Virus record (IMG/VR): IMGVR_UViG_3300001525_000208
Span: 15,019-79,018 of that record
Source: a virus
Taxonomy: Duplodnaviria; Heunggongvirae; Uroviricota; Caudoviricetes
DNA length: 64,000 bases
Strand: one strand, 5' to 3'
Shown: piece by piece, positions 14,474-62,793 of the stretch
How positions within the stretch are numbered: position 1 is the first letter of the stretch
Layout: each line of letters starts with the position of its first letter
Translations under genes and position numbers: made by a program
Notes under the pieces: model-generated
What the model saw: only the letters and a program-made list of their open reading frames with translations
What the model was told of the DNA's origin: nothing
Databases searched by the model: none

Positions 14474-14829
14474 TTATTCAAATAAATCTTGCCATCCTGT
14501 ATCAATAGCATCAATTAATTTTTTAGCTTGGATTATATAAAATCTATAATCAATTTTATAGTCTTTCATAGGTTTTTCAACATATTCATTAAAAATAGTT
14601 GCACCGTATCCAACATTCACATTACTTTGTCTTCCGTCTCCGAAATCTTTATACAATGTTCCACCATTAGTAGATATGTAATATCTAGTAGTTCTATTTA
14701 ATTTGTCTTCAACTACTTCGTCATCTCTAATAGTTCTAAACATTGCTGTAGATTTAGAATTTACTTTTAATCTTAAACAGAAATCATATATATCTGTACA
14801 ATTCATAATTGTTTCAGATATAGGAATAC
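14474..14829 (-). CDS. polB: Family-B DNA polymerase, exon 2 (C-terminal thumb region, including KxY-like KNY/TRYY motifs). The exon start is uncertain within 14802-14829.
   Basis: The MNCTDIY... frame is open upstream to about 14970. It contains an RYY..GG..YKDFGDG segment resembling the post-motif-C region of PolB. It lies immediately 3' of a group I intron. Confidence 0.55.
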
Positions 14830-15945
14830 CATATACAAAATAATTCTTTACTGCTAAGGGGACTATTCTTGCAGATGGGTCTTTATGATACTCTTTATAA
14901 ATTTCATAGTCTCCTTTTAATTTAATGTGTTCACATTCAGGAGAATTATCAGTGTATACTGCGATGTAGTTATTTCAAGTTATTCGTCTGATTTCTCAGA
15001 AGCTTGGACTATATCTTTATTATTAATTCTTATAATTCTATGTTTTTTAAAGATTACATCATTTATTTTCTTTTTATTAAATGTGGCTATTACATTTTTA
15101 AATCCTAATAATTCTAACTCTTTATATAATATATTTTCTGCAATTAAATCTCCATTAGAATTATAAATTGTATAAGTCCATTTAGTTAAATTTTTTGACA
15201 TTAATTCGCTTTGTTGAGTTTTTCGCTTGTTGTTATCTTTCCAATATTCTTTAAGTTTATCAGAATGATCTTTATGACATCCGTTTTCCCAATCTTTTTT
15301 AGCACGAATACCTATTTTTTCTTTTGTTTCTTCTGAACAAAAACATTTCCCTTTAGAATCCCATCTTAAATTATATCCTTTATTTGGATTTAAGGAATCT
15401 AATTCTTTCATCCAATATAATTCTTTTTCTGCTAAAAGTTGTTCTAAATTAGAATCTTTAATATCAAAATTTTCAACTAAATAATATTCAAAATTATCTT
15501 CTCCATATTTTTTGACAGCATTTAATAAATGTGGATTTTCATTATAATTCCTATTATCTATTTTAATGTCTGTCATATGTTGATGTAATCTTTTATAACA
15601 ATTTTTTGATTTACCGACATAGATTTTTCCATTTATAGAATTTTTTATTACATAAATTCCTGGAAAATTGCTGTTTCTTTTAATATTTTCATAAGTTATA
15701 TAATTAATTATTTATATAGCAATAAATCAAAATTTTGACATATAATTATTAAAATTCATAATACCCAGCGTTTCCATTTAAATTTTAAATGTACTCTACT
15801 CACTTCCGTTAAATAACGTGTTTTCGATAGTCTCTGAACCTTCTTCTACATAGAAGCTTGGCTGCTGATTAGTATACGATTAATCGTCACGATTTGCGCT
15901 TCAACTTTCCAGCAATTAACCGGGTTACGACGCAAATATTATCTT
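14802..15945 (-). mobile_element. Group I intron in polB carrying a GIY-YIG homing endonuclease gene. The 3' end is uncertain (14802-14829).
   Basis: Conserved group I elements were found on the minus strand:
- P-like AATTGCTGGAAAG (plus 15905-15917)
- Q-like AATCAGCAG (15860-15870)
- R GGTTCAGAGACTA (15825-15840)
- S-like AAGAATAGTCCC (14859-14870), which completes P7 (GACTA/TAGTC).
P1 has exon GACGU pairing with IGS GCGUC, with U.G at the splice site. The TAA that appears to end the polB ORF lies inside the intron. Confidence 0.7.
14980..15711 (-). CDS. GIY-YIG homing endonuclease (intron-encoded). The first in-frame ATG is at 15576, but the GIY-YIG motif lies upstream of it.
   Basis: PGIYVIKNSINGKIYVGKS is encoded at about 15610-15663, in frame with the MTD... 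ORF. The frame is open back to a TAA at 15712-15714 and contains no ATG/GTG/TTG. Confidence 0.7.
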   Translation of the reverse strand: MINYITYENIKRNSNFPGIYVIKNSINGKIYVGKSKNCYKRLHQHMTDIKIDNRNYNENPHLLNAVKKYGEDNFEYYLVENFDIKDSNLEQLLAEKELYWMKELDSLNPNKGYNLRWDSKGKCFCSEETKEKIGIRAKKDWENGCHKDHSDKLKEYWKDNNKRKTQQSELMSKNLTKWTYTIYNSNGDLIAENILYKELELLGFKNVIATFNKKKINDVIFKKHRIIRINNKDIVQASEKSDE

Positions 15946-17372
15946 ACGTCCCTCACGCACATCTTTGAGTATACAGTTTCTTCAATTGTTAGTCCCGTTT
16001 CTTCAGTTAATTGATCATTAACTTTTCTTATCTTATCTAAATCCTCTTTAGGTACATATAAGGTTTGCCCATCCGTGTTAGTCTGAATGAATTTCAGTCT
16101 AGGGCATACTTTGACCCATCTTTCTGCCCACATACAGATAAATATCTGTCCTGCAATAGTAGTTTTAAAGGTATATAATGGATCATATAAGAAGGATTTT
16201 TCCTCATTAGACTTGCCATATGTGCCATTCAAAATAAGTTTATATCCTTCAATTAAAACATTATCACGTTGATTTTTAGGCTTATGTTTTTCAGCTAATC
16301 GTGCATCTATAAATCCAATATATTGTTCATTGAATACAGGACCTAAATGTTCAGGATATAGTCCTAATGATTTTGAAATACTCGGGTAGAGCGAACCGAC
16401 ATCGTAGTCTACGATAACCCATTCGTCATTAGTATTCCAAATTCTTGGTCTAGCGCAGCCGTGAGAACCTCCAAGTCCAAAATCAAACTTATAATCGTGA
16501 AATATCACAGACTGTTGAAATTCACCTTTAATTCCTTTGATTGTGATATGTTTTACTGTATCTAAGAATTGATTAAATTCTTTAGACTCAATTTTACACC
16601 ATTTAGGAATACAATCTGATAATTTTATTCCTTCAGGTCTAGGAGTTCCACCTTGTCTTTTTAATTCATTTGGTAATATTCCTACTTTTCTTGCATATAA
16701 ATTTAAAATAAGCTCTTCTCCCATAGGTACATCACCCATATTGAGAACATTTACTTTAAATTTCTTGTTTAAATCCTGCCTAAGTTTAATTTTATTTTTT
16801 CCTTTATATAATGGATATTCCGTTTTACCGAGAGTAGTAAGGAAAAATAAATATGTGGCATAAACGTCATTCTTATTATAAGTAAGAATGCATTTTTCAT
16901 CACCTTTTTTACACCAAGTTGTATGATGAATAGGCATTTCTTCTACATTAGGCATCCTCATACATACTTCTAGGTCCTTGAGACTACATAATCTAGCTTT
17001 ATTATTGTAATGCCAGATTTTGTAAAGATCTAGCTGTTTTATGAGTACATTTCTTTCAGCAATAACAGAAAACTCTTGTTCAATTATCTCTTGTGACTTC
17101 TTATATAACTTTTGAGCTAATTCTTGCCCATCTAAGAATTCATAATCATTAATAAAATGACGTAAGAAATGATGCTCTAACGGGTAATCATATGAAAGGT
17201 TGTTGAACCCAACCTGTATTAATTTATCTCTATTTAAATGCTCATATAGTGATTTAGAGTCGTTTCTCCAATCACAAATAACAAATTGATAATACTTATC
17301 TTCTTTAGGACAATATCCTGTATAAGTAAATACATTACTTAGACATTCTAAATCGTATATTTCTAATATCAA
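15946..17372 (-). CDS. polB: Family-B DNA polymerase, exon 1, with a TTG start
   Basis: Exonuclease motifs:
- Exo I: DLE at residues 7-9
- Exo II: FNNLSYD
- Exo III: YNKND
Polymerase motifs:
- motif A: DYDVGSLYPSI
- motif B: KLILNGTYGK
- motif C-like: TNTDG
The track ORF ends at a TAA at 15939-15941, which lies inside the intron. The true exon ends after ...CVRDV at 15946. Confidence 0.8.
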
Positions 17373-36121: not shown

Positions 36122-36820
36122 TCATTCGTCTTCGCCGTTTTCAAATTGATTAATTCTATCAAGAACCGATTTCATATTAGGTTCAATATACTTATCGGGG
36201 AAACAACCTTCAGTTGAACGACAAGTATCATAACCATCAGTACGAGTTTTAAATCGATACTTGATAGATTCATCATCATCAATATATCGTTCTGCATACA
36301 AAATATATGAGAACAAACCATCAATATTAACAGTACTGTTTAACAGTTTACCTGTGGTGTAAAGACGCCATTCAGGTTCCATATCAGTACCATTGTTTAT
36401 AATATGAGAAATGAGAACTACATTAAGATCATCTCTCAGATTTTGTGCAGATTGAATCAAATCATAGTAATTCTTTGCACTAACTGAAAACTTTTCATAG
36501 CCTTTAGTTAATGCATTAACCATAGCTTCATTACTCATAAGATAGTTACAATCATCCAAAATAATCGTTTTAATTTCTGGACGTGTATTTGAAATTATTT
36601 GCAACATCTGAGTAATTTGAGGATAACTATTACTAGTAAGCCAATTTCCAGTAAGTTTCTTATCTTTTACTGCAACTTTTTTGTATTTTTTTCTAAAACC
36701 AGGAATCTGCAATTGCTTATTAGTACAACTAATAATAAATGTAGATTCAGGTTCCAAATACTTCAAAGATGTTGATTTACCAGTATTAGAAAGTCCTCCA
36801 AGTGCAATAAGATTGCTCAT
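36122..36820 (-). CDS. P-loop NTPase (Walker A/B)
   Basis: GGLSNTGKSTS (Walker A) and IILDDCN (Walker B). Confidence 0.45.
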   Translation of the reverse strand: MSNLIALGGLSNTGKSTSLKYLEPESTFIISCTNKQLQIPGFRKKYKKVAVKDKKLTGNWLTSNSYPQITQMLQIISNTRPEIKTIILDDCNYLMSNEAMVNALTKGYEKFSVSAKNYYDLIQSAQNLRDDLNVVLISHIINNGTDMEPEWRLYTTGKLLNSTVNIDGLFSYILYAERYIDDDESIKYRFKTRTDGYDTCRSTEGCFPDKYIEPNMKSVLDRINQFENGEDE

Positions 36821-37164
36821 TATAAAATAAAATTTAATTGTTGTTTATTTATATCATCTTGTTTTTCATTTTCTTGTTTAATCTCAGAATTTACTTCATC
36901 TTTTTCAAGAATCCAATTAGGATTCTTGTATTTATCATAATCATAGATTTCATCAGGTAAAGGAAGTTCTTTAAAATAATTAATCCAACCGTAAAAACTA
37001 CATCCGATTTCAACATCACAGTCACCGAAACGATTCTTTAAAACCATAATGCTTCGGAATACACTTTCTAATTGTTCTATGTTATATTTGCGATAAGTTT
37101 TAAGCGCGTCGCGAAAAGGATTATATAAAGCAATCATAACATTACTGTCTTGTACGGTATTCCC
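36820..37164 (-). CDS. dnaB: DnaB-like replicative helicase, exon 2 (C-terminal region following motif H4). The 5' boundary is uncertain.
   Basis: QDSNVMIALYNPFRD...FRSIMVLKNRFGDCDVEIGCSFYGWINYF matches the DnaB C-terminal region (DADVVMFLYRDEYY ... IIAKQRNGPTG ... FTRFE). The frame is open from 37200. The track ORF starts at a TTG at 37179. Confidence 0.6.
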   Translation of the reverse strand, partial: GNTVQDSNVMIALYNPFRDALKTYRKYNIEQLESVFRSIMVLKNRFGDCDVEIGCSFYGWINYFKELPLPDEIYDYDKYKNPNWILEKDEVNSEIKQENEKQDDINKQQLNFIL

Positions 37165-37993
37165 TGTATCTTTAGCCAAATTTGTTATCTTAAAGGCTCT
37201 TTATCCTTTAATTCTATACTTTTATTTATATGTATAGTTCAGACTATATCTTTCATTCATTTTATATTCTCACGAATTTTACTCTGAACAGTGCCCCGCT
37301 TTCGTGGATGATTTTATAGCCTCGTCTTTCTCGTTAGGCATCACATCTAGTCGTTTAGCTTTTTCCTCAATTTCTTGAGGGTTTAGCACAAGATTGTCCT
37401 TTTCAGGAGTTTCCCTGTTTAACGGAGTTTTATAATGACACTTATAACTTATATTTCATGCAAGATACTATATAAGGCTCTATCAATCTTTTAAATTTAG
37501 GATATTCTTTACTTGGAATATATACAAGATTATCGGACTTATTATTTAAAGTTATAAAAATATTAAATTTAACTTTAAACATTTCTTTTATTAATTCTAA
37601 CTCTTGTTTAGAAAAATTATTAGTACATAACATACATCCTCCATAAGGATTACATTTATACCCATCATCCATATACCAGATAGCTAGTCCAAGAGGTTCT
37701 ATTTTAAATAAGTCATCCTTATATACTGTTTTCACTGGACGATACCAATTATAAAACATAGCATTTAATGATATAGAGGATTTAGTATAAAAAGAATAAT
37801 TATAATATTCAGGATTTTTTCTTCCGTTTGGTGGAAGTTTGTTATTTTTTCTAATTTTTGCAATAGTAGATTCAGAATCACCTGAAATTCTGGATATTTC
37901 AGAATCTTTTAATCCTTGTTCATAAAATTCTAAAAATTGATAGATTTCAAAATAGTTTTTCTTAAATTTCTATAAATTAATTATTTTATCATT
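37165..37993 (-). mobile_element. Group I intron in the dnaB-like helicase gene with a LAGLIDADG ORF in its 5' region. Boundaries are approximate.
   Basis: Minus-strand elements:
- S AAGATATAGTCTGAAC (37237-37252)
- R-like ACGACTAGA (37346-37354)
- GTTCAGAG (37283-37290)
- P-like AATTGAGGAAAAAG (37358-37371)
- P9-like hairpin CTATAC...GTATAG
The helicase is broken exactly in motif H4. Exons 1 and 2 are in different frames, which excludes an intein. Confidence 0.6.
37442..37759 (-). CDS. LAGLIDADG homing endonuclease (intron-encoded). Its frame is continuous upstream through an HTH-like segment to the TAG that ends helicase exon 1.
   Basis: LGLAIWYMDDGY is a LAGLIDADG motif. The upstream in-frame extension (37760-37969) encodes ...LKDSEISRISGDSESTIAKIRKNN (HTH-like). 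Confidence 0.6.
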   Translation of the reverse strand: MFYNWYRPVKTVYKDDLFKIEPLGLAIWYMDDGYKCNPYGGCMLCTNNFSKQELELIKEMFKVKFNIFITLNNKSDNLVYIPSKEYPKFKRLIEPYIVSCMKYKL

Positions 37994-38740
37994 AATACTA
38001 AAGGCCGATTTTCCCTGTTTGAATCTCTCGATATTACCTTGTTCGCGATTAGCTTGTTGGATTACGACAGGACTTATCTTACATTTCTCTCTTAGTACTA
38101 CTAAGTATGCAGATAAGTTATCGATTTCTTTCTTTAAAGTATTCCCTTGCTGAGGTCTTATTAATCCTATATGATCTATAATTACATTATATATCAAATT
38201 AGGATTATAAGGAGTATAAATGAGTCGGTTTTCACTTTCGGAAAAAGTTCCCATTTCCTCAAGTCGTTTCTTTAAAATTGAATAAACTGTATTAGCATTT
38301 ACTTGTTTATCGTAAATTTCCAGTTTACTTTCAATTTTATCTATCCAAGGTTTACACTTTTTGATTAATTCGTAATATTCCTCAGATAATACATAATCTC
38401 GTTCTCTAGATAGTATCTTTTTATAAGATAGTTCAATTCCATAGGTTTCAAATAAATACATAGACAATAACTTTATAAACAACGAAGTTGCATTCATTTC
38501 TAGAGAGAAATAAATAATTTTAAAGTCATCATCGTCAATATGAGCTTGTAAAGGTTTAAAAACATACGAGTAAAGTGCAAAACTCGTCTTACCTGCACCC
38601 GAATTACTCAGGATAAGTGTGTAAGTTTCACGAGTTACACCATCTATTATGCTTTCTAACTTAGGAAGACCCATAGGTATACCTTTATTTAAACCTAATC
38701 TACCTCTTTCAATTTCATTAAAGACACTGTCTGAAATCAA
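37994..38740 (-). CDS. dnaB: DnaB-like replicative helicase, exon 1 (RecA-like ATPase core)
   Basis: Walker A LSNSGAGKTSF, Walker B/H2 IIDHIGLI, and H3 VVIQQANREQGN. It stops within H4 (KSAFSIN...) at the intron boundary. Confidence 0.7.
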
Positions 38741-49712: not shown

Positions 49713-49785
49713 AGCTTCTACTCAGATTCGAACTGAGAACAACTTCATTACAAATGAAGAACTCTACCAATTGAGCTATAGAAGC
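49713..49785 (-). tRNA. tRNA-Thr (anticodon UGU)
   Basis: Manual fold: acceptor GCTTCTA/TAGAAGC, D-arm GCTC..GAGT, anticodon stem CTTCA/TGAAG with loop TTTGTAA, T-arm CTCAG-TTCGAAT-CTGAG. Confidence 0.8.
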
Positions 49786-49964
49786 AGAAAAGTATATTAA
49801 ATAAATTTAATTTCCATCATTTATAAAATATACTTTTATAATCAATAATTGACTAGTTTGTGTATTTCCGTAATACTCAGTTTTCTTTCTGAGAACGACT
49901 TTTGTAACGGACAAAAGAATAACAGCTTATACAATCTTTTAATTCCTTAATAAGAAGGAATGGA

Positions 49965-50037
49965 AATGTGGGCCTGGGGAATATTGAAATCCCGATCTTC
50001 GGTTTATGAGACCGCTGCTTTAACCTCTAAGCTACAA
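49965..50037 (-). tRNA. tRNA-Met/Ile2 (anticodon CAU)
   Basis: Acceptor GGGCTTG/CAGGCCC, anticodon loop CTCATAA, T-loop TTCAATA. One mismatch in the anticodon stem. Confidence 0.7.
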
Positions 50038-53000
50038 GCCCTATGATTTATATTACAAGCATTTATAAGCTTGTTCTATAAATCTATCAATGTATTTATC
50101 ATTATAAAAACAATCTATATTATATCTAAATTGTACTTTTCTTCCAACTTTATATTTAGATTGAATATAATTAAATACTTTTTGACCTTTTCTCCAATTA
50201 TCAGGGAGAGTTTTTATATTTTTAAAAATATCTCCTCTAAATTCTTCAAATGTCATAAAATGTGTTGATTTTATTGTCTTTATAATCTCTTACTATCGTA
50301 GAAGATTTTCTTGGAAAATGTTTAATATAATTTTCATAAGATTGTGCAAAACTAAAATTGGTAATAAACGCACATAATAAAAATATATATCTAAACATTA
50401 TAAATCTTTATTTAAAATTATCTTAAATCTTTTTAAATTGAGCATAAGTATGATTTAAAATAACAGGTTTATTATTTTGAGGATTTAATTCCTTAGTTCC
50501 ATCAGGATTAAGAATTTGAATCTTACAAAAAGAACATCTTTTTTCAACAATAATACCGTGTTTTCCTAAATCATTCTTATGCGTATGAGTAATTACTACT
50601 TCATCTCCTTCTTTATATAGAGTACGTAGTTTCATATTCTGTTATTTGTTTTTTAATATTTTCAATTAAAACATCTAATTGTTTTTTTCTCTCTTCTTTA
50701 TCTTGAATACAAGAAAGTTTAAAACAAGGTCTACTATAATTTTTAAATTGAAATTTTATAGGAATATTTTCCTCAGAGCCATAATAATCTAAAATTACTT
50801 TAGCTATTATAGCTTCCATATTTTTCTTTTTAAGTTTCATTTAAAAAATAAAATTTTAAAATCAATTTTGCAATTCTTTATCTAAAGATGGAATATAACA
50901 CGGAACAGCTAATATATCTTTAATTTTTAGTTCTGTTTCATATTCATCAACATCTGTACTTAATAATTGATCACAATCATCATAAATTCTATATTCTTCA
51001 TAATGACAAGTATTATAAGCTGTAATTAATATATTATTATAATACAATAGAAAGTTTTGTTGCCAAGTATGTGAATCTAATGCAATACAATTAAAATCTA
51101 ATATAACAGCTTTAATAATAGAGTTATTATTAGATATATTAATTATATCATATTGTTTATAATCATTCATAATTTTTAAATTCTTCAATATTATTAATAA
51201 CTATAGGTTGCCCATCTAAGAATAGAAAATAATCTGCTAGGGTATCTACATAATAAGTAGGGCCTGAGGACATTGTGACAGAATCATCTATTATTTTTGT
51301 AATAAGTACTATTCTATTACCAACTTTATCTCTCAAATACCCAAAACAATCATGCTTCTTAGCTTCTTTAATAAACTCTGAAGTTTTACATACTTTCTTT
51401 GTGTATTTGATTCTAAGAGGAATTTTGAATTCAACACATTCTTTTATTCTTTCAGGATCAGTAGTTTGTTTATAATTATTGGTTGTATTATCCCAATATT
51501 CTACTTTTTTATTCTTAAGTAATGCATCAAAGCATTTAATAATAATATCTTGTTTAGTCATATTTATTCAATATAATCATCAGTAGTACCAATTAATTTA
51601 GCTGTTTTTTCATTGTAAGGGAGACAATAAGTATACCAACCATTAATAGTAGTATAAGGAGCTTCTTTGCAAGATTTATCTTTATAACTAAAGAAATCAA
51701 TAGTCCAAGTATCAAGTTTATTATCTCTTACAACAACCTTGTCAAAAGGTTTAAAATGGTATTTTTCTTTCTTTTTAAGACTAAAGTTGTCCCAGTTTCT
51801 TACTTCTTTTGAAGGGAAGAGAAGACATTCTCCATTTATGTTATATTGGCCATAACTATTAAATGTAAAAAATCCTATTTCTTCATCAACAAAAACAGTT
51901 AGATCTCCATTATCTAAAATTCTACTCAAATATACGTCACCACAGAGAGGGCTATAAAGTTTGAATCCTTCACGTAAGAAAGCTTGATAATATCCTTGAG
52001 TTGCATCTTTGAGTAAATCTGCTATATTATTCATATGTCACTGTTTTTAAGTTATATTCTATGTTATTGAATTCTCCTTCTGTAGTATCAGAGATTTCTT
52101 TACCATCACCATCTTTATAAAATCTTTCAAAAGCTTCTGTAGGACTTGTAGCATCTATTTCATATACTCTAGTCCTAGTAAGATGTTCTATTTGTGTTAT
52201 TTGATATGTTTTCATAAGGATTTCAATAAAAAACAAATCATAAAGTATATAAATACTAGAGTAAATACATACTAAATGATAGGTTACAATTATAAAACCA
52301 AACAAAAATGTCTATTATTCTACTAGTTTACCAAAAGGAGTATTATCAGCAAATTGAAATGAATCTAATGCTTCTTTAAAAGTATAAGCTAGATGTTCAT
52401 CAGGATAAGCATCTAGCATAAGTTCATCTTCAGCTACTGATATAATAGGTTGTTTAATACCTTGTTTAGTGAATGTAATCCAACTAAAAGGTTGATGTTT
52501 GAGCATTTCTTCCCAACATTCTTCTTTAGTTTCAAAAGAAACATATTTAGGTTCAGGTTTTACTCTGAAAGTAATATCTGCTTCCATAAAGGTTTGAATG
52601 TCTACAATTTTAAGTTCATCTAGGTCTATCCAAGCCCCTGTATCATAGACACCATTATCTTTATATTGAATAGTTTTACCTTCTGAATATGCTTTAAGAA
52701 TAGGAAGTATGTCTTTAATTTGATTTGATGTCATAATTTAAAAATAAATACGTTTATACTTTATATTACCACATTTTGTACATTGAAGGAGAAATCCTTT
52801 AGCACATTGCTCATGAGTTTTATCGTACAAAGGAACTTCATTTAATAAAGTCCAATGATGACGATGAAATAATAAATCGTAAATTCTAGTAAACATATCT
52901 AAACATAATTAAAATCTAATAAAATGAGGAAACCTTGTTAATGTCTTATTTTACATCTCATTGAGAAAACCTCTTTGTCTACATATTACTATGTAGTTCT

Positions 53001-53310
53001 GCTTATTTGTTTTACTGTGGATTCTAAAAGCATTTTCTTATGTAACATCGTCCTATTTTATATAGGATTAAAGATATACAGCCACAAACTCTATTAAAAG
53101 AGATAGTATAATTAAAATTATGAAGAAGATTAAAATAATAAAAGAGAGTGTATAAAATAGTTTAATGTTTCATCACTATTAATACACTCTCTTGTCGTAA
53201 TTAAATTACCTGTACTGCTGCTTGGTCACAGTCCTACCACCCTTCGTATATCTTGTTGCACAAGGGCGAAAAAGTCACCAATTTGTAGATTATTGGGAAC
53301 TGAAACATAG

Positions 53311-53384
53311 TGACTCCGACGAGATTCAAACTCGTGACAAATAATTTAGAAGATTATTGCTCTATTCAGCTGAGCTACGGAGTC
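53311..53384 (-). tRNA. tRNA-Arg (anticodon UCU)
   Basis: Acceptor GACTCCG/CGGAGTC, D-arm TAGCTCAGCTGAATAGAGC, anticodon stem ATAAT/ATTAT with loop CTTCTAA, T-arm CGAGTTTGAATCTCG. Confidence 0.8.
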
Positions 53385-53534
53385 ATATTTACAATAATAA
53401 TATTTATATTATAAATAAAAAAGAGTAGTTATAAAACTACTCTTTTCACTTATAAATTAAGTCTTACTTGAACCATATAAATAATTCATTTTAAAATATA
53501 ATTTTAAGTTAAACAATTTATTAAGTAAGACTTT

Positions 53535-54092
53535 TTACCAAGTATAATTAGGATCACATAATACTAAATATTTGCTATAATTATAATCTTCATTACCAAG
53601 TCTTACATTATGACCATTGATGTTTTCTATTTTAGCATCAGGCATATAAGGACTATAATCATAATGTCTATATGTAGTATATGTAATATCCCATAAAACT
53701 TGATAACGATATTTATAATCACTTTTTAAATCTCCTTTTAAATTCTTTTTGGGAATTTTACAAAGAAGATAAGGTTCATCCCAAGATAACCAAAGCATAT
53801 ACTCATGATAAATCAATCTTGCATAATAGAACTCATTATCTTCAAATAAAGTTATTTCCCATAATTGGCTAACTCCAACAGGCCACCCTGTGGGTCCAAC
53901 TTCGACATCAAATCCAGTTTTTGCTTCACTTAATACTAGATTAGCATTTGGAATATTAATGTCATGATCTAGGTTGGTAATATTAAAATCTAGATTTTTC
54001 TTACTAAACACTCGATGTTGAAATCGAAAGATACTCCAACTAATAAATACGACAATTATTAGTCCTAAGAGAATACTTATAAAATATATCAT
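53535..54092 (-). CDS. Hypothetical membrane-anchored protein
   Basis: N-terminal TM segment MIYFISILLGLIIVVFISWSIF. Confidence 0.4.
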   Translation of the reverse strand: MIYFISILLGLIIVVFISWSIFRFQHRVFSKKNLDFNITNLDHDINIPNANLVLSEAKTGFDVEVGPTGWPVGVSQLWEITLFEDNEFYYARLIYHEYMLWLSWDEPYLLCKIPKKNLKGDLKSDYKYRYQVLWDITYTTYRHYDYSPYMPDAKIENINGHNVRLGNEDYNYSKYLVLCDPNYTW

Positions 54093-54109
54093 ACAGATTA
54101 ATTATTGGT

Positions 54110-54260
54110 TACAATTAAAACCCTACTAGTTTGACTAAAAAGTCAGGGACTAGTAGGAAAAAGAACAACGTTGTTGCTGTATAGAGAGTCGAACTCTATA
54201 ATTGACCATCACAGCAAGAATATTCTCCATTTGAGAATATTCTGATTAATTAATTACTAA
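54110..54260. repeat. Cluster of perfect palindromes and hairpins in a non-coding region
   Basis: - cctactagt...actagtagg, with a nested tgact-aaaa-agtca (54122-54157)
- 12-bp palindrome aacaacgttgtt (54164-54175)
- tatagag-agtcgaa-ctctata inside gctgt...acagc (54176-54215)
- an 11-bp stem agaatattctc...gagaatattct (54216-54245). Confidence 0.6.
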
Positions 54261-54383
54261 TTAATAGGAATCATACAACTAGGAGTAAGTAAAGTTGTTG
54301 ATGCCAATAAGTTACTAATTGCTTTTAAAATTCTTTTCATAATCTAATATATTTTAGTTAATAATAAGTTATCTTTAGAATTG

Positions 54384-54470
54384 TAGCTCGAACGGGACTC
54401 GAACCCGTAAGTTCTTTTCAGAACAGTAGATTTTCATAAGAGTTTCACATCTCTCTTGGACTATGTCTTC
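54384..54470 (-). tRNA. tRNA-like element or fragment. It has a canonical T-arm and acceptor 3' half plus a variable-arm-like hairpin, but no convincing 5' half or anticodon arm.
   Basis: Minus strand has ACGGG-TTCGAGT-CCCGT followed by TCGAGCT, preceded by GTTC-TGAAAA-GAAC. No matching 5' acceptor strand was found within 150 nt. Confidence 0.3.
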
Positions 54471-54582
54471 TCCTTATTATTTATAACTTAGGAGGTTGGT
54501 ATATAGTCTCTACACATTTATGTAATAAAATTACAATTTAGCTCGGCGTTATTATCATTTTAAGGCTGATACCTTCACCGAA

Positions 54583-54873
54583 TTAGCCAACTTCTACATC
54601 AGAGATTTCTCCCTGTGTACTCATACCTATATTTTTACCTCTATAATTATCCGTAAAAGCATGACAATTAGGACATAATACTTGAAGATTACAAAGCCTT
54701 AAATCATCCTTAATACCATTTATATGATGTAACTCTAATTTAATAGGCTTTTCTAACCATTCAGTTCTTCCACAACACTCACATTTATATTCTTTTACAT
54801 TTTCTTTTAGTAATCTTTCACGAAGATGATTAGTGTTTATAAATGTAGAATGTTCTACTAAGATTTCAGACAA
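54583..54873 (-). CDS. HNH endonuclease (free-standing)
   Basis: Two CxxC pairs and ELHHINGIKDDLRLCNLQVLCPNCH. Confidence 0.65.
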   Translation of the reverse strand: MSEILVEHSTFINTNHLRERLLKENVKEYKCECCGRTEWLEKPIKLELHHINGIKDDLRLCNLQVLCPNCHAFTDNYRGKNIGMSTQGEISDVEVG

Positions 54874-55435
54874 AGGTTGTTTTTGTTTAATTTGTCTATA
54901 TCTTTTTCCCTAATTCCATACTTTTCCAGTCATATGAGAGGTATCTAAATTTAATTCATCAATTTTTCGTTTTATAGTATCATAGTTACTTCCTGCAACT
55001 TTAAGTCCTATTTTTCGTAGAACTTTTGCATAAGATAAGCTAGTTTTTACTGCTTCAATAAATTGAATATATCAAATTAAATTTAGGTGAATTTATTTTC
55101 TTCAAAGTCTACTGCGTTTACCTATTTCGCCATCGAGCCGATAACTAGTTTATTTTATTCCTAAACTAGTAAAAGAATACTTTTTAATCTTCACATACAA
55201 CTACTGAATCTGTATTAATAGAATCAGAATCAACTACAGTAGAATCTTGTTCAGAAGATGATTCTACATGTTTGTTACAACTAATAAATGAAGTACTAAA
55301 AAGTACTGCAAATACAAAAATAAGCTTTTTCATATTAAATATATTTTTAATTATTAATATTCAAATTAAAAATTACTCTATTCTCACGAACCAAGTAATT
55401 CAAGTTATCAAACGTTATTTCACATAATATAATTG

Positions 55436-55517
55436 TTGGAATAATAGGAATCGAACCTATATTATCTGGCCCAAAATCAGATGTAATAACCATTATACTA
55501 TATTCCAGTTTGTAGAA
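55436..55517 (-). tRNA. tRNA-Gln (anticodon UUG)
   Basis: Acceptor TGGAATA/TATTCCA (U1-A72, as in bacterial tRNA-Gln). Anticodon loop TTTTGGG with a 4-bp stem plus A.C. T-arm ATAGG-TTCGATT-CCTAT. Confidence 0.65.
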
Positions 55518-55582
55518 CCGATATTCACATATGAGTTCTACTTCAACTATAATCACTTAAAACATTTAACGAACTATGCTTG

Positions 55583-55656
55583 CGCTTTAGGTAGGATTCG
55601 AACCTGCGACCCTCTGATTAACAGTCAGATGCTCTAACCAACTGAGCTACTAAAGC
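55583..55656 (-). tRNA. tRNA-Asn (anticodon GUU)
   Basis: Acceptor GCTTTAG/CTAAAGC, D-arm TAGCTCAGTTGGTTAGAGC, anticodon stem TCTGA/TCAGA with loop CTGTTAA, T-loop TTCGAAT. Confidence 0.8.
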
Positions 55657-56990
55657 TTAGATAATATTTTATTAATATTATCATTTTAATTACTAATACT
55701 GTTTATAAATATACTCTTTATTTTTTTAATTACAAAAATGCTTAACTGTTAAATGATTTTAAGAGCTAATTATGATTTTTGTAATGTTGAGTTTACAATC
55801 CAAGATACTATAAATACAGATTCAATTTTCGGATTTAATTCGTGAATATTAAAACCCCTTTCTTTAATATCATTAATAATATTATCTTTAGAATCTAATA
55901 AATCGGGTGTAAGTTCTACTAAACAATAAGATTTATTATTTCTTGCTTTATTAGTGATTATATTATTTAAATCTTTAATAAAATCACTAATCCGTTTGTC
56001 TAAGGATTCCAATTTTCCTGTAATTGAAAGTAATCTTGCATCTTCACTTGTAATTGGTTTTTGTTTCGGTGAAATAATTGTTTTTAAAATATCTGTCATG
56101 GTTTGTAAATTTTATAACCTTTCTTTAATAAATAATTAATACAATATGATTCTTCATTGAATACTAATTCAGTATTAGTAGAATTACGTTTTCTAGCATA
56201 ACATTGTTTAGTTTTCTCATTTTTGTATTCTTTAATTTGAGTCATTAAATTTGCGATTTTTTCTTGGAGAATATTAGTTGGACTAAAATAATACTCTCTT
56301 TTATCTCTAATTATAGAATTAGTATTAATTAATTTTTGAAGAAGTGCTAATCCGTTAGGATATTGTTTGAATTCTTTTTCAAGTTCGTAACGTAAAAATC
56401 TACGACCTTTACTTGCTAATCTGAAAGAATTAATTTCTATTGTAATATCTGAAATTGTCATTGTTGTTTGAATTTTATCTTGTTATTAAATAAGGTATTC
56501 TCTAAGATACTTATTTTACTAAGCACTTAAAGAATACCGAGCCTTTAGTATATTCCACCTAAAGGGAGATTTCTACATTAAAGATTGATATAATATGTTG
56601 AATTTCATGCATATAGTGAATGTCAGCAATGAAGACTGATAAGCTTCCAAAACCTGTAATAATTTCTAGATATACACCAATGCAATCACTTTCCATGTTC
56701 AAACGAATTCTTCTATTATCATCAATATATTTAACAATATTCTTAATATACTGATTTTCTTTATGTTTATAGAAGTGATTTGATTTGAGATGTTTTTTGA
56801 AGATTTCACATGGTTTTATTTCTTCTAAAGGTACAGTTAATGTATCTTCATCTTGAAATTGAATCTTAGCGAAAGTTTCACTTACACCAAGAATAATTAC
56901 TACATCATGGTGATAAGTTACAATGTCGTTGATTTTGAGATCTGTTGCTTTCATTTTGTTGTTGTTTTAGTGAGTGAATAAATGGATTTG

Positions 56991-57062
56991 TCCTCATAAT
57001 AGGAATCGAACCTATAACTATATCTTATAAATGATTTGTTTTACCAATTAAACTATATGAGG
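56991..57062 (-). tRNA. tRNA-like gene with a degenerate anticodon arm (possibly Ile-UAU; the loop contains TTTATAA)
   Basis: Perfect acceptor CCTCATA/TATGAGG, D-stem GTTT/AAAC, and T-arm ATAGG-TTCGATT-CCTAT. The 17-nt anticodon-arm segment AATCATTTATAAGATAT cannot form a 5-bp stem. Confidence 0.45.
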
Positions 57063-57636
57063 TTGTTTTAGTGCAATAAAAGTATCTATTCTCACGAACC
57101 AATACTTTTGGATGAAAAATCGTTTCATCTGATTAAATTCAATAACTCACTAAAACGTAATTAATTCTATTTGTCTGAGTAAAGCTCTTTGAGCCTTAAT
57201 CTCTTTTCTAAAGAAATCATACACTCTTTTTCTTTTATCAGTTCTTAAGTCTGAGAGTGTAGATTTATTGAGAATTCTCCCATTTCTGTTCATACAAACA
57301 GTATAAAGGGAGATGAGTTTATGCAGTTCTTCAATGCCATTAAATTCTTGGCAAGGAAAATACATATTTCTGCATACTTTGATGTTCTTTTTAACTGCTT
57401 CTTTTGAAGCTTCAGCTAAAGAAGAATATTGTTGATTATCTCTTGTGAGAGTGTTGTCTTGGATGAAGTATATGTAATACATAGTTGTTATTGATTTAAT
57501 TGTGATTCATAATTTTCAATTAGTTTAAGATCTTCGTGATTAGTCATCTGATAACCTACAAAAAAGCTAAGAAGACAAAGACAAATTACTAAAAGTGGAA
57601 TATTACGTTTCATTGTTGTGAATGGTTATTAAAAAG

Positions 57637-57720
57637 TACCTCTAATGGGATTTGAACCCATACTTCCTTATGGAAATAGCATTTTAAGTGCTACGTGTCT
57701 ACCACTTCCACCATAGAGGC
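57637..57720 (-). tRNA. tRNA-Leu (anticodon UAA), type II
   Basis: Acceptor GCCTCTA/TAGAGGT, anticodon stem TAGCA/TGCTA with loop CTTAAAA, long variable arm TTTCCATAAGGAAGT, T-arm ATGGG-TTCAAAT-CCCAT. Confidence 0.8.
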
Positions 57721-58645
57721 TTTGTTAATTATTATTGTTTGTTCTTTTTATCTTGAGTGTAACAAATAGTCATTAATAAACAACCATTTGTAAATGTTGA
57801 TAATGCTAATCCTACTACAAATGCAATAGTACAAGGGTCATTGTTTAAAAGACCTATACAAGTACAAATAAGTAGAACTAAAGTACAGCAACAAGAGAAA
57901 ATTAATGATTTCATTTTGTTTGGTTTTATATAACTGAGGTTTTAGATATTATTTTCATACCAATCTGCTACAGTGTCAAATTCTTCTTCTGTAAGGTCTG
58001 ATACTGTAGTATAGTAGTTACAAGCTGTTATGTATTTAGCTTGTGAGCAAGTGGACTCTATAATAGAATCCAATTTGTTAAGGCATTCTTGTTTTGTCAT
58101 TATCTTATACGATTTAATTTATACTATTGCGAGGTTTCACAGACACAGAGCCATTATCTATATGATAGTTTCTCTCTGTGTTTCGTCCAGTCTCATCAGT
58201 ATGAATTTTAACGTCTCCTGGATGACGATTTTTTACTTTTTAGCAAACAAGAAATGAACATTAATTTGATAGTTTGACCTTATACTAACTATTCAAGGTT
58301 TTGTTGATAAAATGGTTAATTCGTATTAAGTTGGGATAATTTTGGATTTGGTTGGTGTGGGTGATGGTTGTGTTGGGAGGGTGGTGATGAGCTGCTTCGT
58401 TCTTAACATATCACGAACGATACACCAATACACCTTTCCATCAATTAACCAATCTTCTCCACCACGAATACTCATCCATTTACCAGACTCAACATCTTTG
58501 TACAAACTGTCACCATACTTACGTACTTTGACAGTCTTAAGTCTTTCGTCAGGATGCATAATATGTATACATATTAAAATCTAAAAACTTAAGTTACTTC
58601 GAATGACTCGTTATAACCTAAATTTTTAGATTTTTTCAACATATA

Positions 58646-59131
58646 CTACTCTGCATCTATGGTAGGAATATTAGTATTTACGAGAGCATCACCATCAAAA
58701 TTGAGAGTTTTGATAGTCATCATGTCCGAAAACTTAATCTTCTTACCTCCGAAATACTTAACTGCTTCGTCAATTGAGGCAAACTCACGGAACTTTTCTG
58801 CACAAGAACCAGTAGTATGAACTCGGTTACCTGTAGGAGTCATGTCGTCATTATATACGGCACGAGACTTCCACATAATTGACGGATAGAATCGCTTAGC
58901 GCAATTCTTAGTACCTGTTGTTGCGTTGGATACATCAACAAGAATGAACTGAGCACTATTGGTTCCAATCTTCTGATTGTAAACCTTGTACTCTTCAGGC
59001 ATTACGAACTCATCACCTTTCTCAAACGAGTTAAGGTCTACATCACGAGTTGCGCCAGTAAATGCATTACCAGCTACTTCAATACCTTTTGTCTTAGAAA
59101 GACGATCGATTTCAACAGTCATTGCTGCCAT
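58646..59131 (-). CDS. Hypothetical protein inside the GC-rich segment
   Basis: 161-aa ORF. Local GC and amino-acid composition (A/G/T/V-rich) differ from the rest of the window. Confidence 0.4.
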   Translation of the reverse strand: MAAMTVEIDRLSKTKGIEVAGNAFTGATRDVDLNSFEKGDEFVMPEEYKVYNQKIGTNSAQFILVDVSNATTGTKNCAKRFYPSIMWKSRAVYNDDMTPTGNRVHTTGSCAEKFREFASIDEAVKYFGGKKIKFSDMMTIKTLNFDGDALVNTNIPTIDAE

Positions 59132-60016
59132 TGTCTTGGTGTGGATTTACCTATATCACCCACGAGGTTTTAATAAAAATTGGAATCACTGTCTTAGGTG
59201 GATTCATAACCTACGTATACATTTATACTCCTATACGCAGAGTAGACAAGCGGTTGCTTGCCTACATCGCTATCGCAAGTTATACCTTTGGCTATTTTTT
59301 ATAATATATATTGGCTATCTTTACCCCCTTTCCGACCTCGGCAACGGATGCCCGATGAGGGGCACCACGTTGTGAGGTGTGGGAATCAATAGCAATTGTA
59401 AAACGCTATCGTGGAAAGGTTGTAAACCTTTTCGGTTTCGTTTGCAATGTATTCAAGTTCTTTGCCTTGTTCAACACAATCGCAAAGAACTTTAAAGACT
59501 CTGCGTTTTATCCAATCTTGCGAGTTTTTCGGTTTGAGTGGAACGTTATTGTAGATAATTGCAAATTCGGGATGCCTAATGCTTTGCAGTGCAACGTATG
59601 TTTTTGTTTGCTCTATGATTGCGAAGCGGTCAAATTTGTATTCGGAATTGTCGGAAATGATTGCTTTAAAAATGTTGTTCATTGTTGTATGAGTTTTTTT
59701 GTTGTTGGTGGAGTTGAGTATAAATAAGCCTTTTTACAACGTGCTTAGGTTGTGTTTGTTTTATTTCTCTGTAACGTAAGATATAAGAGAGAAAACGAAC
59801 TTAAAGAAAAGTCCATAGAATAAAAACATTAGGAAAAGATTAAGTGCGTAAGGTTCGGTATAGCCAAAAACCAAAGTTGCAACAATCATAAGAACTAACA
59901 CCAATGCAGATGTTATGCCAAAGAAAAGAATATTTTTCATTTTCGTAAAATTTTGATGAGTTGTAAGTGATTAAATATGCACGTTGATTAAACGCTCAAC
60001 GTGCAAAGCGTGTGTG

Positions 60017-60439
60017 TTAAACGAAATCAATAACTAAAACACTTGCTTGCCCGTTGTCAGTTAAGAAATAGTCCTTTGTTAGATTAAGGATTTTATCCTT
60101 AACTTGTGCAAACATAGCGTCCATTACGTTTTCGTTGGTTTTGTCGGTGATGGAATCGGCTGCCTTTTTCATCGCCTCAACCGCTGCGCCGTGTGCGGTG
60201 TGTGGCTTTGCGTTCTTATCAAGTTTAACCTTGAAAAGCGATGAAGCGTAAACTGGAATGTTTTTATTAGTAAGGAAAATGGGGCAGTTGGTTACGCTTT
60301 CCTTAAACTGAACTTGCGAAAAACTCCAACCGATAATTTGAAGTTTGCCTTCTTGCAAACCTCCGAAATTAAATTGTTGGTTGAAGGCTTCGTTCTCTTT
60401 GCGTTTGTCTTCTGCGACGATTGTAGCGTTAAATGCCAT
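60017..60439 (-). CDS. Hypothetical protein inside the GC-rich segment
   Basis: 140-aa ORF with atypical (higher-GC) composition. Confidence 0.4.
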   Translation of the reverse strand: MAFNATIVAEDKRKENEAFNQQFNFGGLQEGKLQIIGWSFSQVQFKESVTNCPIFLTNKNIPVYASSLFKVKLDKNAKPHTAHGAAVEAMKKAADSITDKTNENVMDAMFAQVKDKILNLTKDYFLTDNGQASVLVIDFV

Positions 60440-60906
60440 AGTAATAAAATTTTAAGTGAGTAATTAAATGAGTGATTGTGTGCGAGCCGAGGGCGTACCC
60501 CCTGTTCGATAGAACAGTATAGGAATATATATGCTGGCTATTTTCCATCCGATGGGGGGAGGGGGTCCCCACCGGAGGTCTACCCACCCGCCCATCACCA
60601 TCAAAAATTTTACTCCAAAAAATCCACCCATATAACATAAGAAGGAATTTTTATCTAACTCATTGATTATCAGTGACTTACAAAATTTATAGTCATTATC
60701 AGATGTGTCACAATTTTAATGACTTTGAATTTTAGATTTAATTTTTTGAAATATAAAAATTATGACTATGTTTAATAATAAAAGTAAATCGTATGAAACA
60801 ATTCTGCCAAGTGTATATTATTTAAATCCTGAATATTTCTTTAAAGGTAAAATTTTAGATAGAACTAATATTATTAAAAATATAGTTGAATATAAATTTG
60901 TATAAA

Positions 60907-60940
60907 ACAAAAAACGCAGATTCTTTAATTAGAATCTGCG
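60907..60940. terminator. Hairpin terminator (bidirectional), 3' of late gene 60946..62145
   Basis: aacgcagattct-ttaatt-agaatctgcgtt is a 12-bp perfect stem flanked by A/T runs. Confidence 0.6.
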
Positions 60941-60945
60941 TTTTA

Positions 60946-62145
60946 TTATTTAATTCTTCGAATTAATCCACCGTTTTTATAATTATTACTTTTAGATGCC
61001 TATATCTGTTTCTTAACTTCATCAACAGCTTCTTGAGAAACACCTAAACCTTTTAATACTCTTTGACCTTCTTTCATTGCATTTCCAGTATCATCAAAAA
61101 TATCTCTACCTGTTGCTGCATTATATCCATCATCAGTTGCACTTAGTATACTTACAATATCATCTCCATGAAATTTATTTAATGTAACAAGTGATCCTAG
61201 ATCTAACAATGTATGAACTATATTCTTAGCAGAAACATCATTTATTAATGATTTAGCATCAAGACCAAAATCAGGAAGATTCTGTGCAATCATATGATAT
61301 ACTTTATATTTAGAAGGAAATAAACTAACAACATTATTCCATACTGATAATCCTGAAGCTATTCTTTGTAATACTTCATTATCACTATCTGCTAATAAAC
61401 CAACTCCATCACCTAATAATGAAAATGCATCTACTCCTAATTGAACTTTATCCCAAGTACTCTATCCTTTAAACCACTGACCTGCTTTAATACCATATTT
61501 TTTGGCATAACTGGCTACTTGTTTAGCAATTTGACCTGCGTATTTAGAAGCGTAATTGACTAATTTAAAAGCTTGTGGTGCAAAAGATGCTGCACCTTCT
61601 AGTAATATTGGTGAAAGAATAAGTCCAGCGGCTACAGCAGCAGTAAAGTTACCTGCACTTTCAAAAGCATCATGAATTTCTGCATATCCTTTAGGATTTC
61701 GAATAGATTCAAAATTACCTGCTTCAGTTAAAGTTTTAGGTTTAGCCCAAAGATTATTACTGGAAATCCAATCACGAAGGTTGTCTTGTTGCTAAACATC
61801 ATCTATTAATATGTTATAATTTTTATCTACTAATACTGTTTTACCGTCTACTGTATTAATAAATGAATAACCTTTTTCTTTAGCAACTTCAGGAGGCATA
61901 ACAAGTTCTCCTTTATTATTATATCTGAATCCTTGTTTTATCTATTCATTAGTAAGTTTATTCGTTCCATATCTAATTCCTTGTTTAACTTCATTTTGTG
62001 CTTCATTTCTTTTATCATTTTCACGCCAAAGTTCTACTTCAGAATCTTCTGAGAATAAATCGTTATTCCAACTTTTATTAACTATAGAATTATTTTTAAT
62101 TGGTTTGACAGGGTTTCCTGAAACTTTAATTTCAATATCAGCCAT
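60946..62145 (-). CDS. Late protein (about 400 aa), readable only with TAG translated. It has four in-frame TAG codons.
   Basis: Track ORFs 61942..62145 and 61000..61293 share one frame. The intervening stops at plus 61942-44, 61792-94, 61462-64 and 61000-02 are all CTA, which is TAG on the minus strand. The frame terminates with TAA at 60946-48. Confidence 0.6.
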
Positions 62146-62160
62146 AATTTTAAGTTTATA

Positions 62161-62216
62161 CTATTTTTGAATTATATTTACAATAATACTATTTTTGAAT
62201 TATATTTACAATAATA
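62161..62216 (+). promoter_or_regulatory. Tandem 28-bp direct repeat carrying a Bacteroidetes-type promoter (-33 TTTG and -7 TAttTTTG), oriented toward gene 62265..62687. A third, inverted copy of the core lies at 62284-62304.
   Basis: ctatttttgaattatatttacaataata appears twice (62161-62188 and 62189-62216). TTTG at 62166-69 and TATTTTTG at 62190-97 are spaced 20 nt apart. Confidence 0.5.
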
Positions 62217-62264
62217 CTGAAAAGTTCTTCATCGTAATTTCAGACGATTTACAAATTTTAATAT

Positions 62265-62687
62265 TTGGAATTATTGAAAAATTATATTATTATTGTAAAT
62301 ATAATAATTAAATACTTATTGATAATGAAAAATGAAATAATTAATGAATGGTTGAAGAGTTTTGGAACTCTTATTAATAAAGAAAAATCAGAAGGAGTTA
62401 CTCATTACGAATTTGACTTTGAAGGGTCACCTGTTCATATTTGGACAAGTGACGGAATGCTTAAATTAGAGTATAAATATAACAATCTTGAAGATGAGTT
62501 TTTAAAGTATTGTGAATCTTTAGATGATGATATTTTTGTAGAAGCTTGTGAACGTTTTAATGAATATAAACCTATTAGAGAATTTTCAAAGAATATAAAT
62601 TCTGAAGATATTAAATTTTTTAAGACTATAGTTGAAAAAATTGTCTGTGAAAAAATTAATTATTATAAAGAAATGATAGAAAGATAA
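62265..62687 (+). CDS. Hypothetical protein (standard code, TAA stop)
   Basis: 140-aa ORF downstream of the promoter repeat. Confidence 0.45.
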   Translation: MELLKNYIIIVNIIIKYLLIMKNEIINEWLKSFGTLINKEKSEGVTHYEFDFEGSPVHIWTSDGMLKLEYKYNNLEDEFLKYCESLDDDIFVEACERFNEYKPIREFSKNINSEDIKFFKTIVEKIVCEKINYYKEMIER

Positions 62688-62688
62688 A

Positions 62689-62713
62689 CAATAACTACTC
62701 TTTAAAGAGTAGT
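62689..62713 (+). terminator. Palindromic hairpin downstream of 62265..62687
   Basis: aactactcttt|aaagagtagtt is a perfect 11-bp palindrome followed by tctatt. Confidence 0.4.
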
Positions 62714-62719
62714 TTCTAT

Positions 62720-62793
62720 TGGAGTGTAGTATAAAGGTTTAATTACGATGGTCTCTAAAACCGAAGATCTGAGTTCGAGTCTCAGCGCTCCGA
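62720..62793 (+). tRNA. Amber suppressor tRNA (anticodon CUA), type I. Its acceptor and D-arm resemble the phage tRNA-Gln(UUG), so Gln identity is predicted.
   Basis: Manual fold:
- acceptor TGGAGTG/CGCTCCG (two G.U)
- U8
- D-arm GTAT-AAAGGTTTAA-TTAC with GG
- anticodon stem ATGGT/ACCGA with loop C-U-CUA-A-A (CUA at 62755-62757)
- 4-nt variable loop
- perfect T-arm CTGAG-TTCGAGT-CTCAG
- discriminator A. Confidence 0.75.

Follow-up and report, generated by a model that had tools for sequence, protein, structure and literature searches.

A family-B DNA polymerase gene of an AT-rich phage, very probably split by an IA-like group I intron carrying a GIY-YIG endonuclease gene

Group I introns with homing-endonuclease genes have long been known from phage polymerase genes (PMC3428280, PMC11878797, PMC3984707). 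The td intron with I-TevI, the SPO1 intron with I-HmuI, the Pf-WMP3 intron with I-PfoP3I and the introns of Bastillevirinae are self-splicing IA-type introns located in an essential, highly conserved motif of a gene for DNA metabolism; a peripheral loop holds the endonuclease gene, and homing has been proposed. Among large gut phages, the Delta and Zeta groups of crAss-like phages are reported to have group I introns in PolB and further core genes, which Yutin et al. 2021 (PMC7886860) detected through their protein domains; the same paper describes the Zeta group as having genomes of 145-192 kb and many tRNAs. Here we analyse the DNA polymerase gene (polB) in a 64,000-nucleotide (nt) stretch, hereafter the window, of the Caudoviricetes record IMGVR_UViG_3300001525_000208. 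All polB and intron features are on the minus strand, and coordinates are positions in the window. We consider it very probable (about 0.93) that polB of this AT-rich phage is split by a mobile IA-like group I intron carrying a GIY-YIG endonuclease gene, which supports the central proposal of an earlier note on this DNA. This reading is based on an exact in-frame junction, a guide sequence that pairs with both exons, covariation in the catalytic core and a predicted family-B fold.

The window intron resembles the described systems in being IA-like, in lying in a conserved motif of a DNA-metabolism gene, in having its endonuclease gene in a peripheral loop and in its proposed homing. It differs from these systems in that P2 is absent and the endonuclease gene is frameshifted. 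The SPO1 and Pf-WMP3 endonucleases are HNH nickases, whereas the one encoded here has a GIY-YIG domain. A further difference is that the open reading frame (ORF) in the P8 loop continues through the 3' strands of P8 and P7 and through P9 almost to the splice site.

Two annotated phages have related introns. The PolB of cr3_1 (uncultured phage, Crassvirales, MT774381) is a distant homologue (25-30% identity by tblastn) that is interrupted in the same codon context as in the window (RDI/NNY; a slash marks the junction). The cr3_1 intron core is related to that of the window (73.8% identity over 136-148 nt by blastn) and is accompanied by an S element and by a P9 hairpin whose loop is GAAA. Two coding sequences (CDSs), both annotated 'DNA polymerase', flank a 714-nt ORF (locus L100, 1190..4555). 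In a Felixounavirus, Salmonella phage vB_SenM-pSJ21 (OK539833), the core is 81-82% identical to ours over approximately 80 nt (P4-P6-R); this intron also lies between two 'DNA polymerase' CDSs and scores 61.7 bits on the Rfam model RF00028, but, unlike the window intron, has no endonuclease ORF. The GenBank records of cr3_1 and OK539833 (locus L101, 1..2768) list the split polymerases as two CDSs, with a 'hypothetical protein' between them in cr3_1, and leave the introns unannotated. The window also resembles the crAss-like Zeta group in that contigs of its relatives reach 160-186 kb and that it has a tRNA cluster, a replication module (DnaB, primase, SNF2-type helicase, Thy1, NrdD) and two introns in 64 kb, all of which is circumstantial as to membership of that group.

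The earlier note had observed that the polB ORF stops about 40 residues past the motif C-like sequence TNTDG. The unspliced ORF (17372..15939) indeed has a TTG start, encodes 477 amino acids and ends with TAA (15941..15939) 42 residues after TNTDG. Exon 1 contains the exonuclease region and motifs A (DYDVGSLYPS), B (KLILNGTYGK) and C (TNTDG). Joining U15946 to A14975 gives the in-frame sequence GAC GU/A AAU AAC and a product of 642 amino acids that reads ...YSKMCVRDV/NNYIAVYTDNSPECEH... across the junction; the predicted ligated-exon RNA at this point is GGGACGU/AAAUAACUAC. Alignment with homologues shows that the open frame extending to 14474 encodes the missing PolB C-terminus, as had been proposed. 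In the ORF list, codons 1-56 of exon 2 (14974..14807) contain no ATG, GTG or TTG, and thus cannot be expressed unless they are joined to exon 1 by splicing.

A search of a large protein collection with the spliced protein gave 1274 matches. The best 120 of these are nearly all 636-655 amino acids long, with 62-84% identity and 97-100% query coverage; among the matches listed there are also two truncated products of 477 and 491 amino acids. The spliced protein is collinear with more than 100 uninterrupted homologues, and an alignment with 15 full-length ones from among the listed matches has no gap at the junction (...CVRDV/NNYIAVY...), and the sequence RDVNNY is almost invariant. Invariant residues in the PolB alignment include D475, V476, N477, Y479, Y483, K494, K496 and G497. 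The closest relative, locus L098, has an intron-less gene, whose length of 1929 nt is exactly that of our spliced coding sequence, and the two align end to end. Intron-less alleles read GGGACGT/AAATAA (L099) and AGAGATGT/AAATAA (L098) at the site, with no insertion. Thus, the intron is inserted within codon V476 of the conserved RDV/NNY strand of the palm domain, and alleles with and without it are both present among close relatives.

The 10-nt internal guide UAUUUGCGUC is complementary to both exon ends. Its 3' half, GCGUC (15933..15929), pairs with the exon 1 end GACGU to form P1, and its 5' half, UAUUU (15938..15934), pairs with the exon 2 start AAAUA to form P10. Both helices covary in relatives: P1 is GACGU with GCGUC in the window and GAUGU with GCAUC in the same-site loci L072 and L078, and P10 is formed by CAAU with AUUG in L085 and by UAAC with GUUA in L078. 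In the window and in L005, L080, L085, L072, L078 and cr3_1, U is the last base of the 5' exon and G that of the intron. All three splice-site features of group I introns, namely the U·G pair in P1, P10 and the terminal G, are found here. The earlier assignment of P1 with its U·G pair, which places the TAA codon inside the intron, agrees with the sequence and with the junction that matches uninterrupted homologues. Because the intron and exon 2 both begin with AA, the DNA would permit the junction to be slid by 1-2 nt; this was rejected, as the 5' site is preceded by U and the 3' site by G in the chosen position only.

Table 1. Features of the split polB gene and its intron (window positions).
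Feature	Position	Strand	Remarks
polB exon 1	17372..15946	-	codons 1-475 and GU, the first two bases of V476; ORF list, collinear translation
P1 exon strand GACGU	15950..15946	-	its final U takes part in the U·G wobble of the 5' splice site
Group I intron	15945..14976	-	970 nt; starts after U15946, ends with G14976 (omega-G)
Internal guide UAUUUGCGUC	15938..15929	-	10 nt, complementary to both exon ends
Catalytic core, 5' part	15925..15762	-	Rfam alignment, model R1 and pair counts
P3	15925..15920 with 15768..15763	-	
P element AATTGCTGGAAAG	15917..15905	-	listed in the earlier note
Q element AATCAGCAG	15870..15862	-	listed in the earlier note
P4	15917..15905 (P) with 15870..15862 (Q)	-	P5/P5a/P5b are part of the same core
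P6/P6a	15861..15839	-	
R element GGTTCAGAGACTA	15840..15828	-	includes P7 5' strand; listed in the earlier note
P7.1	15818..15807	-	
P7.2	15791..15775	-	
P8 5' strand UUAUGAAUUUUAAUAAUUAUAU	15761..15740	-	AU-rich duplex with 15039..15018
GIY-YIG homing-endonuclease gene	15692..14980	-	in P8 loop; ATG 15692..15690, stop TAA 14982..14980
P8 3' strand AGAAUUAUAAGAAUUAAUAAUA	15039..15018	-	
S element AAGAUAUAGUCC (also given as AAGATATAGTCC)	15017..15006	-	within the 3' end of the endonuclease ORF
P9 hairpin CUUCUGA-GAAA-UCAGACG	15002..14985	-	GNRA tetraloop
polB exon 2	14975..14474	-	third base of V476, then NNYIAVYTD...; stop TAA 14476..14474
'S-like' AAGAATAGTCCC of the earlier note	14870..14859	-	exon 2 coding for A-R-I-V-P, not an intron element

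The P, Q and R elements of a group I core that the earlier note had listed are all present. When 291 nt were searched, the Rfam model RF00028 (Intron_gpI) matched 15980..15739 at 39.3 bits (E 7e-9), so that the Rfam check suggested earlier did recover the core, but did not reach the gathering score of 50. With 88-100 bits, ORF-less introns of this subfamily, which were found with the model R1 described below, exceed that score. The low score of the window intron is explained by the approximately 750 nt in its P8 loop, as a result of which only the 5' two-thirds were scored. The core has a G+C content of 40%, compared to 25-32% in the window. P7.1 and P7.2 are present and P2 is absent; it is on the presence of P7.1/P7.2 that we call the intron IA-like (IA2 or another subgroup).

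From the proposed P3-P4-P5-P5a-P5b-P6-P6a-P7.1-P7.2 structure (15933..15762) we built a covariance model, R1, and used it to search 97 loci on viral and metagenome contigs, which had been gathered by protein similarity and exact DNA patterns. The search matched 101 related cores, just one of which lies inside the window. Covariation was counted for 39 pairs in 87 distinct sequences. Standard pairs occupy 91.7% of the cells, compared with 58.7% when the 3' partners were shuffled and 30-44% when they were slid by 1-3 columns. The covariation score is 0.442 (shuffled, 0.110; slid, 0.03-0.07), and both partners have changed in every one of the 39 pairs (shuffled mean, 33.9; slid, 24-30). None of 500 shuffles reached any of the observed measures. 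Compensatory changes are thus seen for the core helices P3-P6 and P7.1/P7.2. The same insertion is found at the same place in L001-L004 (approximately 95% DNA identity) and L005-L008 (approximately 80%). Between the window and L005 alone, compensatory changes occur in P3 (C-G to U-A), P5 (U-A to C-G), P5b, P6a (two pairs), P7.1 (three pairs) and P7.2.

Several observations weigh against our interpretation. The Rfam score is sub-threshold, and a 5-kb search reported no match on account of the long P8 loop. The covariation alignment was built with R1 itself and therefore leans towards the proposed structure, although the margin is large. When the mini-intron lacking the ORF was folded on its own, only 14 of the 39 core pairs and none of P1 were recovered (z = -1.4); we regard single-sequence folding as uninformative because the core is AU-rich and pseudoknotted. 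The putative P7 helix is present and agrees with the fold, but its pairing never varies in our set and thus gives no evidence either way. The broken endonuclease ORF, described below, makes present-day mobility of the intron doubtful. Finally, splicing in vivo, like homing and the state of the endonuclease, is something that we infer from sequence.

The 3' domain of the intron overlaps the end of the endonuclease ORF, which reads through P8 3', S/P7 3' and P9. UAGUCC of the S element, the presumed 3' strand of P7, would pair with G-(A)-GACUA in the R element, with the A in parentheses bulged; an equivalent S element is located downstream of the related cores in relatives. The predicted P8 duplex of the window is long and modestly better than in shuffled sequences (-6.2 versus -3.6 +/- 1.4 kcal/mol), and L005, L080 and L085 form an equivalent P8 from different sequences (-9.4 to -10 versus approximately -4.5 kcal/mol for shuffles). 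Among 83 distinct segments following a match to GATATAGTC, 67 can form a P9 hairpin with a stem of at least 5 bp and a 4-nt loop, compared with 12% of shuffles; the loop is GNRA in 58 of those 67, which have 45 distinct stems.

The earlier note had placed the 3' end of the intron elsewhere. It took AAGAAUAGUCCC (14870..14859) as S, which would make 14975..14860 intronic and let exon 2 start at approximately 14850-14828. The 12-mer does exist and resembles the S consensus, and its UAGUC could pair with GACUA of R. It codes, however, for A-R-I-V-P, which corresponds to S-[AM]-R-I-V-P in most uninterrupted homologues of the alignment, with a small number of conservative substitutions, and all 39 codons in 14975..14860 (NNYIAVYTD...HKDPSARIV) align to every uninterrupted homologue, invariant residues included. 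Given this conservation, the stretch must be exon. Moreover, no G in that region is in phase for a 5' exon ending in GU, except for one that would delete conserved residues, whereas the better S at 15017..15006 is followed by the P9 hairpin and a G that gives the exact in-frame junction. We consider the earlier boundary to be almost certainly wrong; the predicted 3' splice site lies after G14976, some 120 nt further upstream.

It is also very unlikely that polB is simply a split gene that is not spliced, with a 477-residue N-terminal protein, a separate C-terminal protein (for example, a 110-residue ORF starting at ATG 14806) and a free-standing endonuclease cassette in between. Split family-B polymerases occur in some T4-like phages, and gene callers list the pieces separately in relatives, as does GenBank for cr3_1. 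Such an arrangement would, however, lose the 56 conserved, start-less codons in 14975..14807 together with the invariant NNY strand. Nor would it account for the intervening DNA having kept a full group I core with compensatory changes and a guide that matches both exons, or for the reading frames of the two pieces joining exactly under the U/G rules. We attach an equally low probability to a decayed intron that no longer splices, which would make polB a pseudogene in a defective or misassembled genome. The endonuclease gene is frameshifted in the window, and elsewhere in the ORF of L001-L004, and the window intron scores below the Rfam gathering score. Against this, none of the core helices in the window is broken, and lineages with approximately 80% DNA identity retain these helices through compensatory changes; the frames of both exons have stayed open and their invariant catalytic residues have been preserved, and the same arrangement is present in assemblies of several independent samples. 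An intein or a group II intron was rejected, since stop codons interrupt the exon frame within the insert, the endonuclease gene uses another frame and the RNA core is of group I.

The ORF in the intron had been described as a GIY-YIG endonuclease gene. The domain is present: Pfam PF01541 matches residues 11-100 of the frame-corrected product (MKILKE...PGIYVIKNSINGKIYVGKS...) with 39.1 bits (cut-off, 22.6); PHROG 314 (E 1.1e-20) and PHROG 7168, both 'homing endonuclease', are further matches. The ORF itself is not intact in the window. The A-run at 15676..15674 is AAA in the window and AAAA in L001 and L005 in a DNA alignment, and this 1-nt deletion puts ATG 15692 out of frame with the GIY-YIG domain. 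A three-frame translation of the window revealed no ATG, GTG or TTG ahead of the GIY motif in its own frame. No exact copy of the truncated 198-residue ORF of the window is on record. In L005 the ORF is intact, encodes 241 amino acids and ends 6 nt into exon 2; in L001-L004 the 5' end is intact, and ~18 residues are lost from the C-terminus through a different 1-nt deletion. That two lesions have arisen independently in A-runs would be consistent with decay of the endonuclease after fixation of the intron. The endonuclease of the window is probably inactive, unless the deletion is an assembly error. A regulated recoding site behind the ATG would be a weaker explanation of the frameshift than decay.

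The assignment of the polymerase to family B required structure prediction and a fold search, because Pfam and searches of PDB sequences failed. Pfam gave no match to DNA_pol_B, only one to DNA_pol_B_exo2 with 13.6-14.1 bits (cut-off, 24), and protein and profile searches of PDB sequences returned nothing relevant; by sequence profile, the protein does not qualify as a family-B polymerase. The match to PHROG 1252 'DNA polymerase' (E 1.8e-136) spans residues 5-634 and runs through the junction without a break. Distant phage homologues (32-35% identity) carry the annotation DNA polymerase and, in some cases, family B or DNA polymerase II. An AlphaFold model from 34 sequences has a predicted local distance difference test (pLDDT) score of 87.7 and a predicted template modelling (pTM) score of 0.82. 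Family-B polymerases (9°N, KOD, Tgo, Pol alpha, RB69) account for all 50 Foldseek matches listed from the PDB, with E-values of 2e-13 to 4e-11, a probability of 1.00 throughout and TM scores of approximately 0.4-0.5. The predicted family-B fold is accompanied by motifs A (DxxSLYPS), B (KxxxNxxYG) and C (xTD). In the model, the junction is located at the turn of a β-hairpin (463-475/478-483), after motif C and its helix. The earlier note had equated KNY with the KxY motif. KNY (519-521) is modelled in a helix, and NNY at the junction is, by its position and from general family-B architecture, the likelier equivalent of KxY.

Other members of the PolB family are also interrupted. Across the relatives, insertions occur at at least five positions, around residues 130, 325, 370-390, 435 and 476, all of which except residue ~130 are at or beside catalytic motifs. 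L014 has an interruption of 1.4 kb around residue 130; L016, L064 and L087 are interrupted at 325/326 in motif A, L019 and L072 around 370-390 at motif B, and L015 around 435 at motif C (R1 match, 38.8 bits). Rfam detects two introns between residues 405 and 433 in L064, and L064, L072 and L087 each have more than one interruption. Introns of the same subfamily as ours, with the guide GCGUC, are located in motif A after ...D-x-D-V (GACGU/) in L094, L086 and L073, as seen from their 5' exon ends; at this site the exon resumes at residue 326-327 in L071, L074, L082, L083 and L096. The sites at 325/326 (D-x-D-V/G-S-L-Y-P-S) and 476/477 (RDV/NNY) share the 5-nt target of the guide, GACGU. One could speculate that a single lineage with a GCGUC guide colonised both polB sites, which would fit ectopic spread by reverse splicing with a guide of 5-6 nt rather than homing alone, but we think this unlikely.

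If the group I intron behaves as we propose, the primary transcript would fold into a P3-P9 core, in which the guide UAUUUGCGUC would align the exon 1 end GACGU, with U·G at the cleavage site, with the exon 2 start AAAUA. An external guanosine would attack after U15946, the released exon 1 would then attack after the terminal G14976, and the ligated mRNA would code for the 642-residue polymerase. The intron may have spread by homing via the GIY-YIG endonuclease encoded in its P8 loop, which would have cut intron-less polB alleles near GGGACGT/AAATAAC. In the window genome the endonuclease would have decayed after fixation, assembly error aside.

The window as a whole is the replication module of an AT-rich phage (25-32% G+C) and codes for a Dda-like helicase, NrdD, exonucleases, a primase, helicases, a ligase, a sigma factor and Thy1. 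It contains a second group I intron at 37219..37484 on the minus strand, for which a 600-nt search with Rfam Intron_gpI gave 45.3 bits and an E-value of 2.3e-10, against a gathering score of 50. This intron (ORFs 37970..38740, 37442..37759 and 36820..37179) lies between a DnaB-like helicase ORF (PHROG 19) and a 119-residue ORF (...VLKNRFG...) that looks like a helicase C-terminus, and a 105-residue ORF with the LAGLIDADG-like sequence LAIWYMDDGY overlaps its 5' part. As model R1 did not match it, it belongs to a different subfamily. A scan of the whole window at the Rfam gathering threshold reported no group I intron, and so both introns escape standard Rfam annotation. The same window contains a RAGATH-1 hammerhead ribozyme (RF03152; 58137..58228, minus strand; 65.2 bits, gathering score 56.3) within a cluster of eight tRNA genes (49713..62793). 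Thymidylate-synthase profiles match the C-terminal half alone (residues 128-271) of a 271-residue ORF at 5419..6234 on the minus strand. The sigma-factor gene upstream of polB encodes 284 amino acids in L006 and L007 and 170 in L005 (3150..4004); given that the locus coordinates of L005 are otherwise the same as those of L006 and L007, this suggests a point lesion or an assembly difference in L005.

In summary, the window intron is a well-supported, ordinary case of a familiar mobile element, with relatives in the same codon of crAss-like PolB, and it leaves our understanding of how group I introns work unchanged. Its main value is for annotation: the pieces are called as two or three genes, and the correct product is one PolB of 642 amino acids, joined at GACGU/AAAUA. 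Introns have been reported to abound in the genomes of large gut phages, and to these reports the locus adds a mapped junction and an RNA structure supported by covariation.

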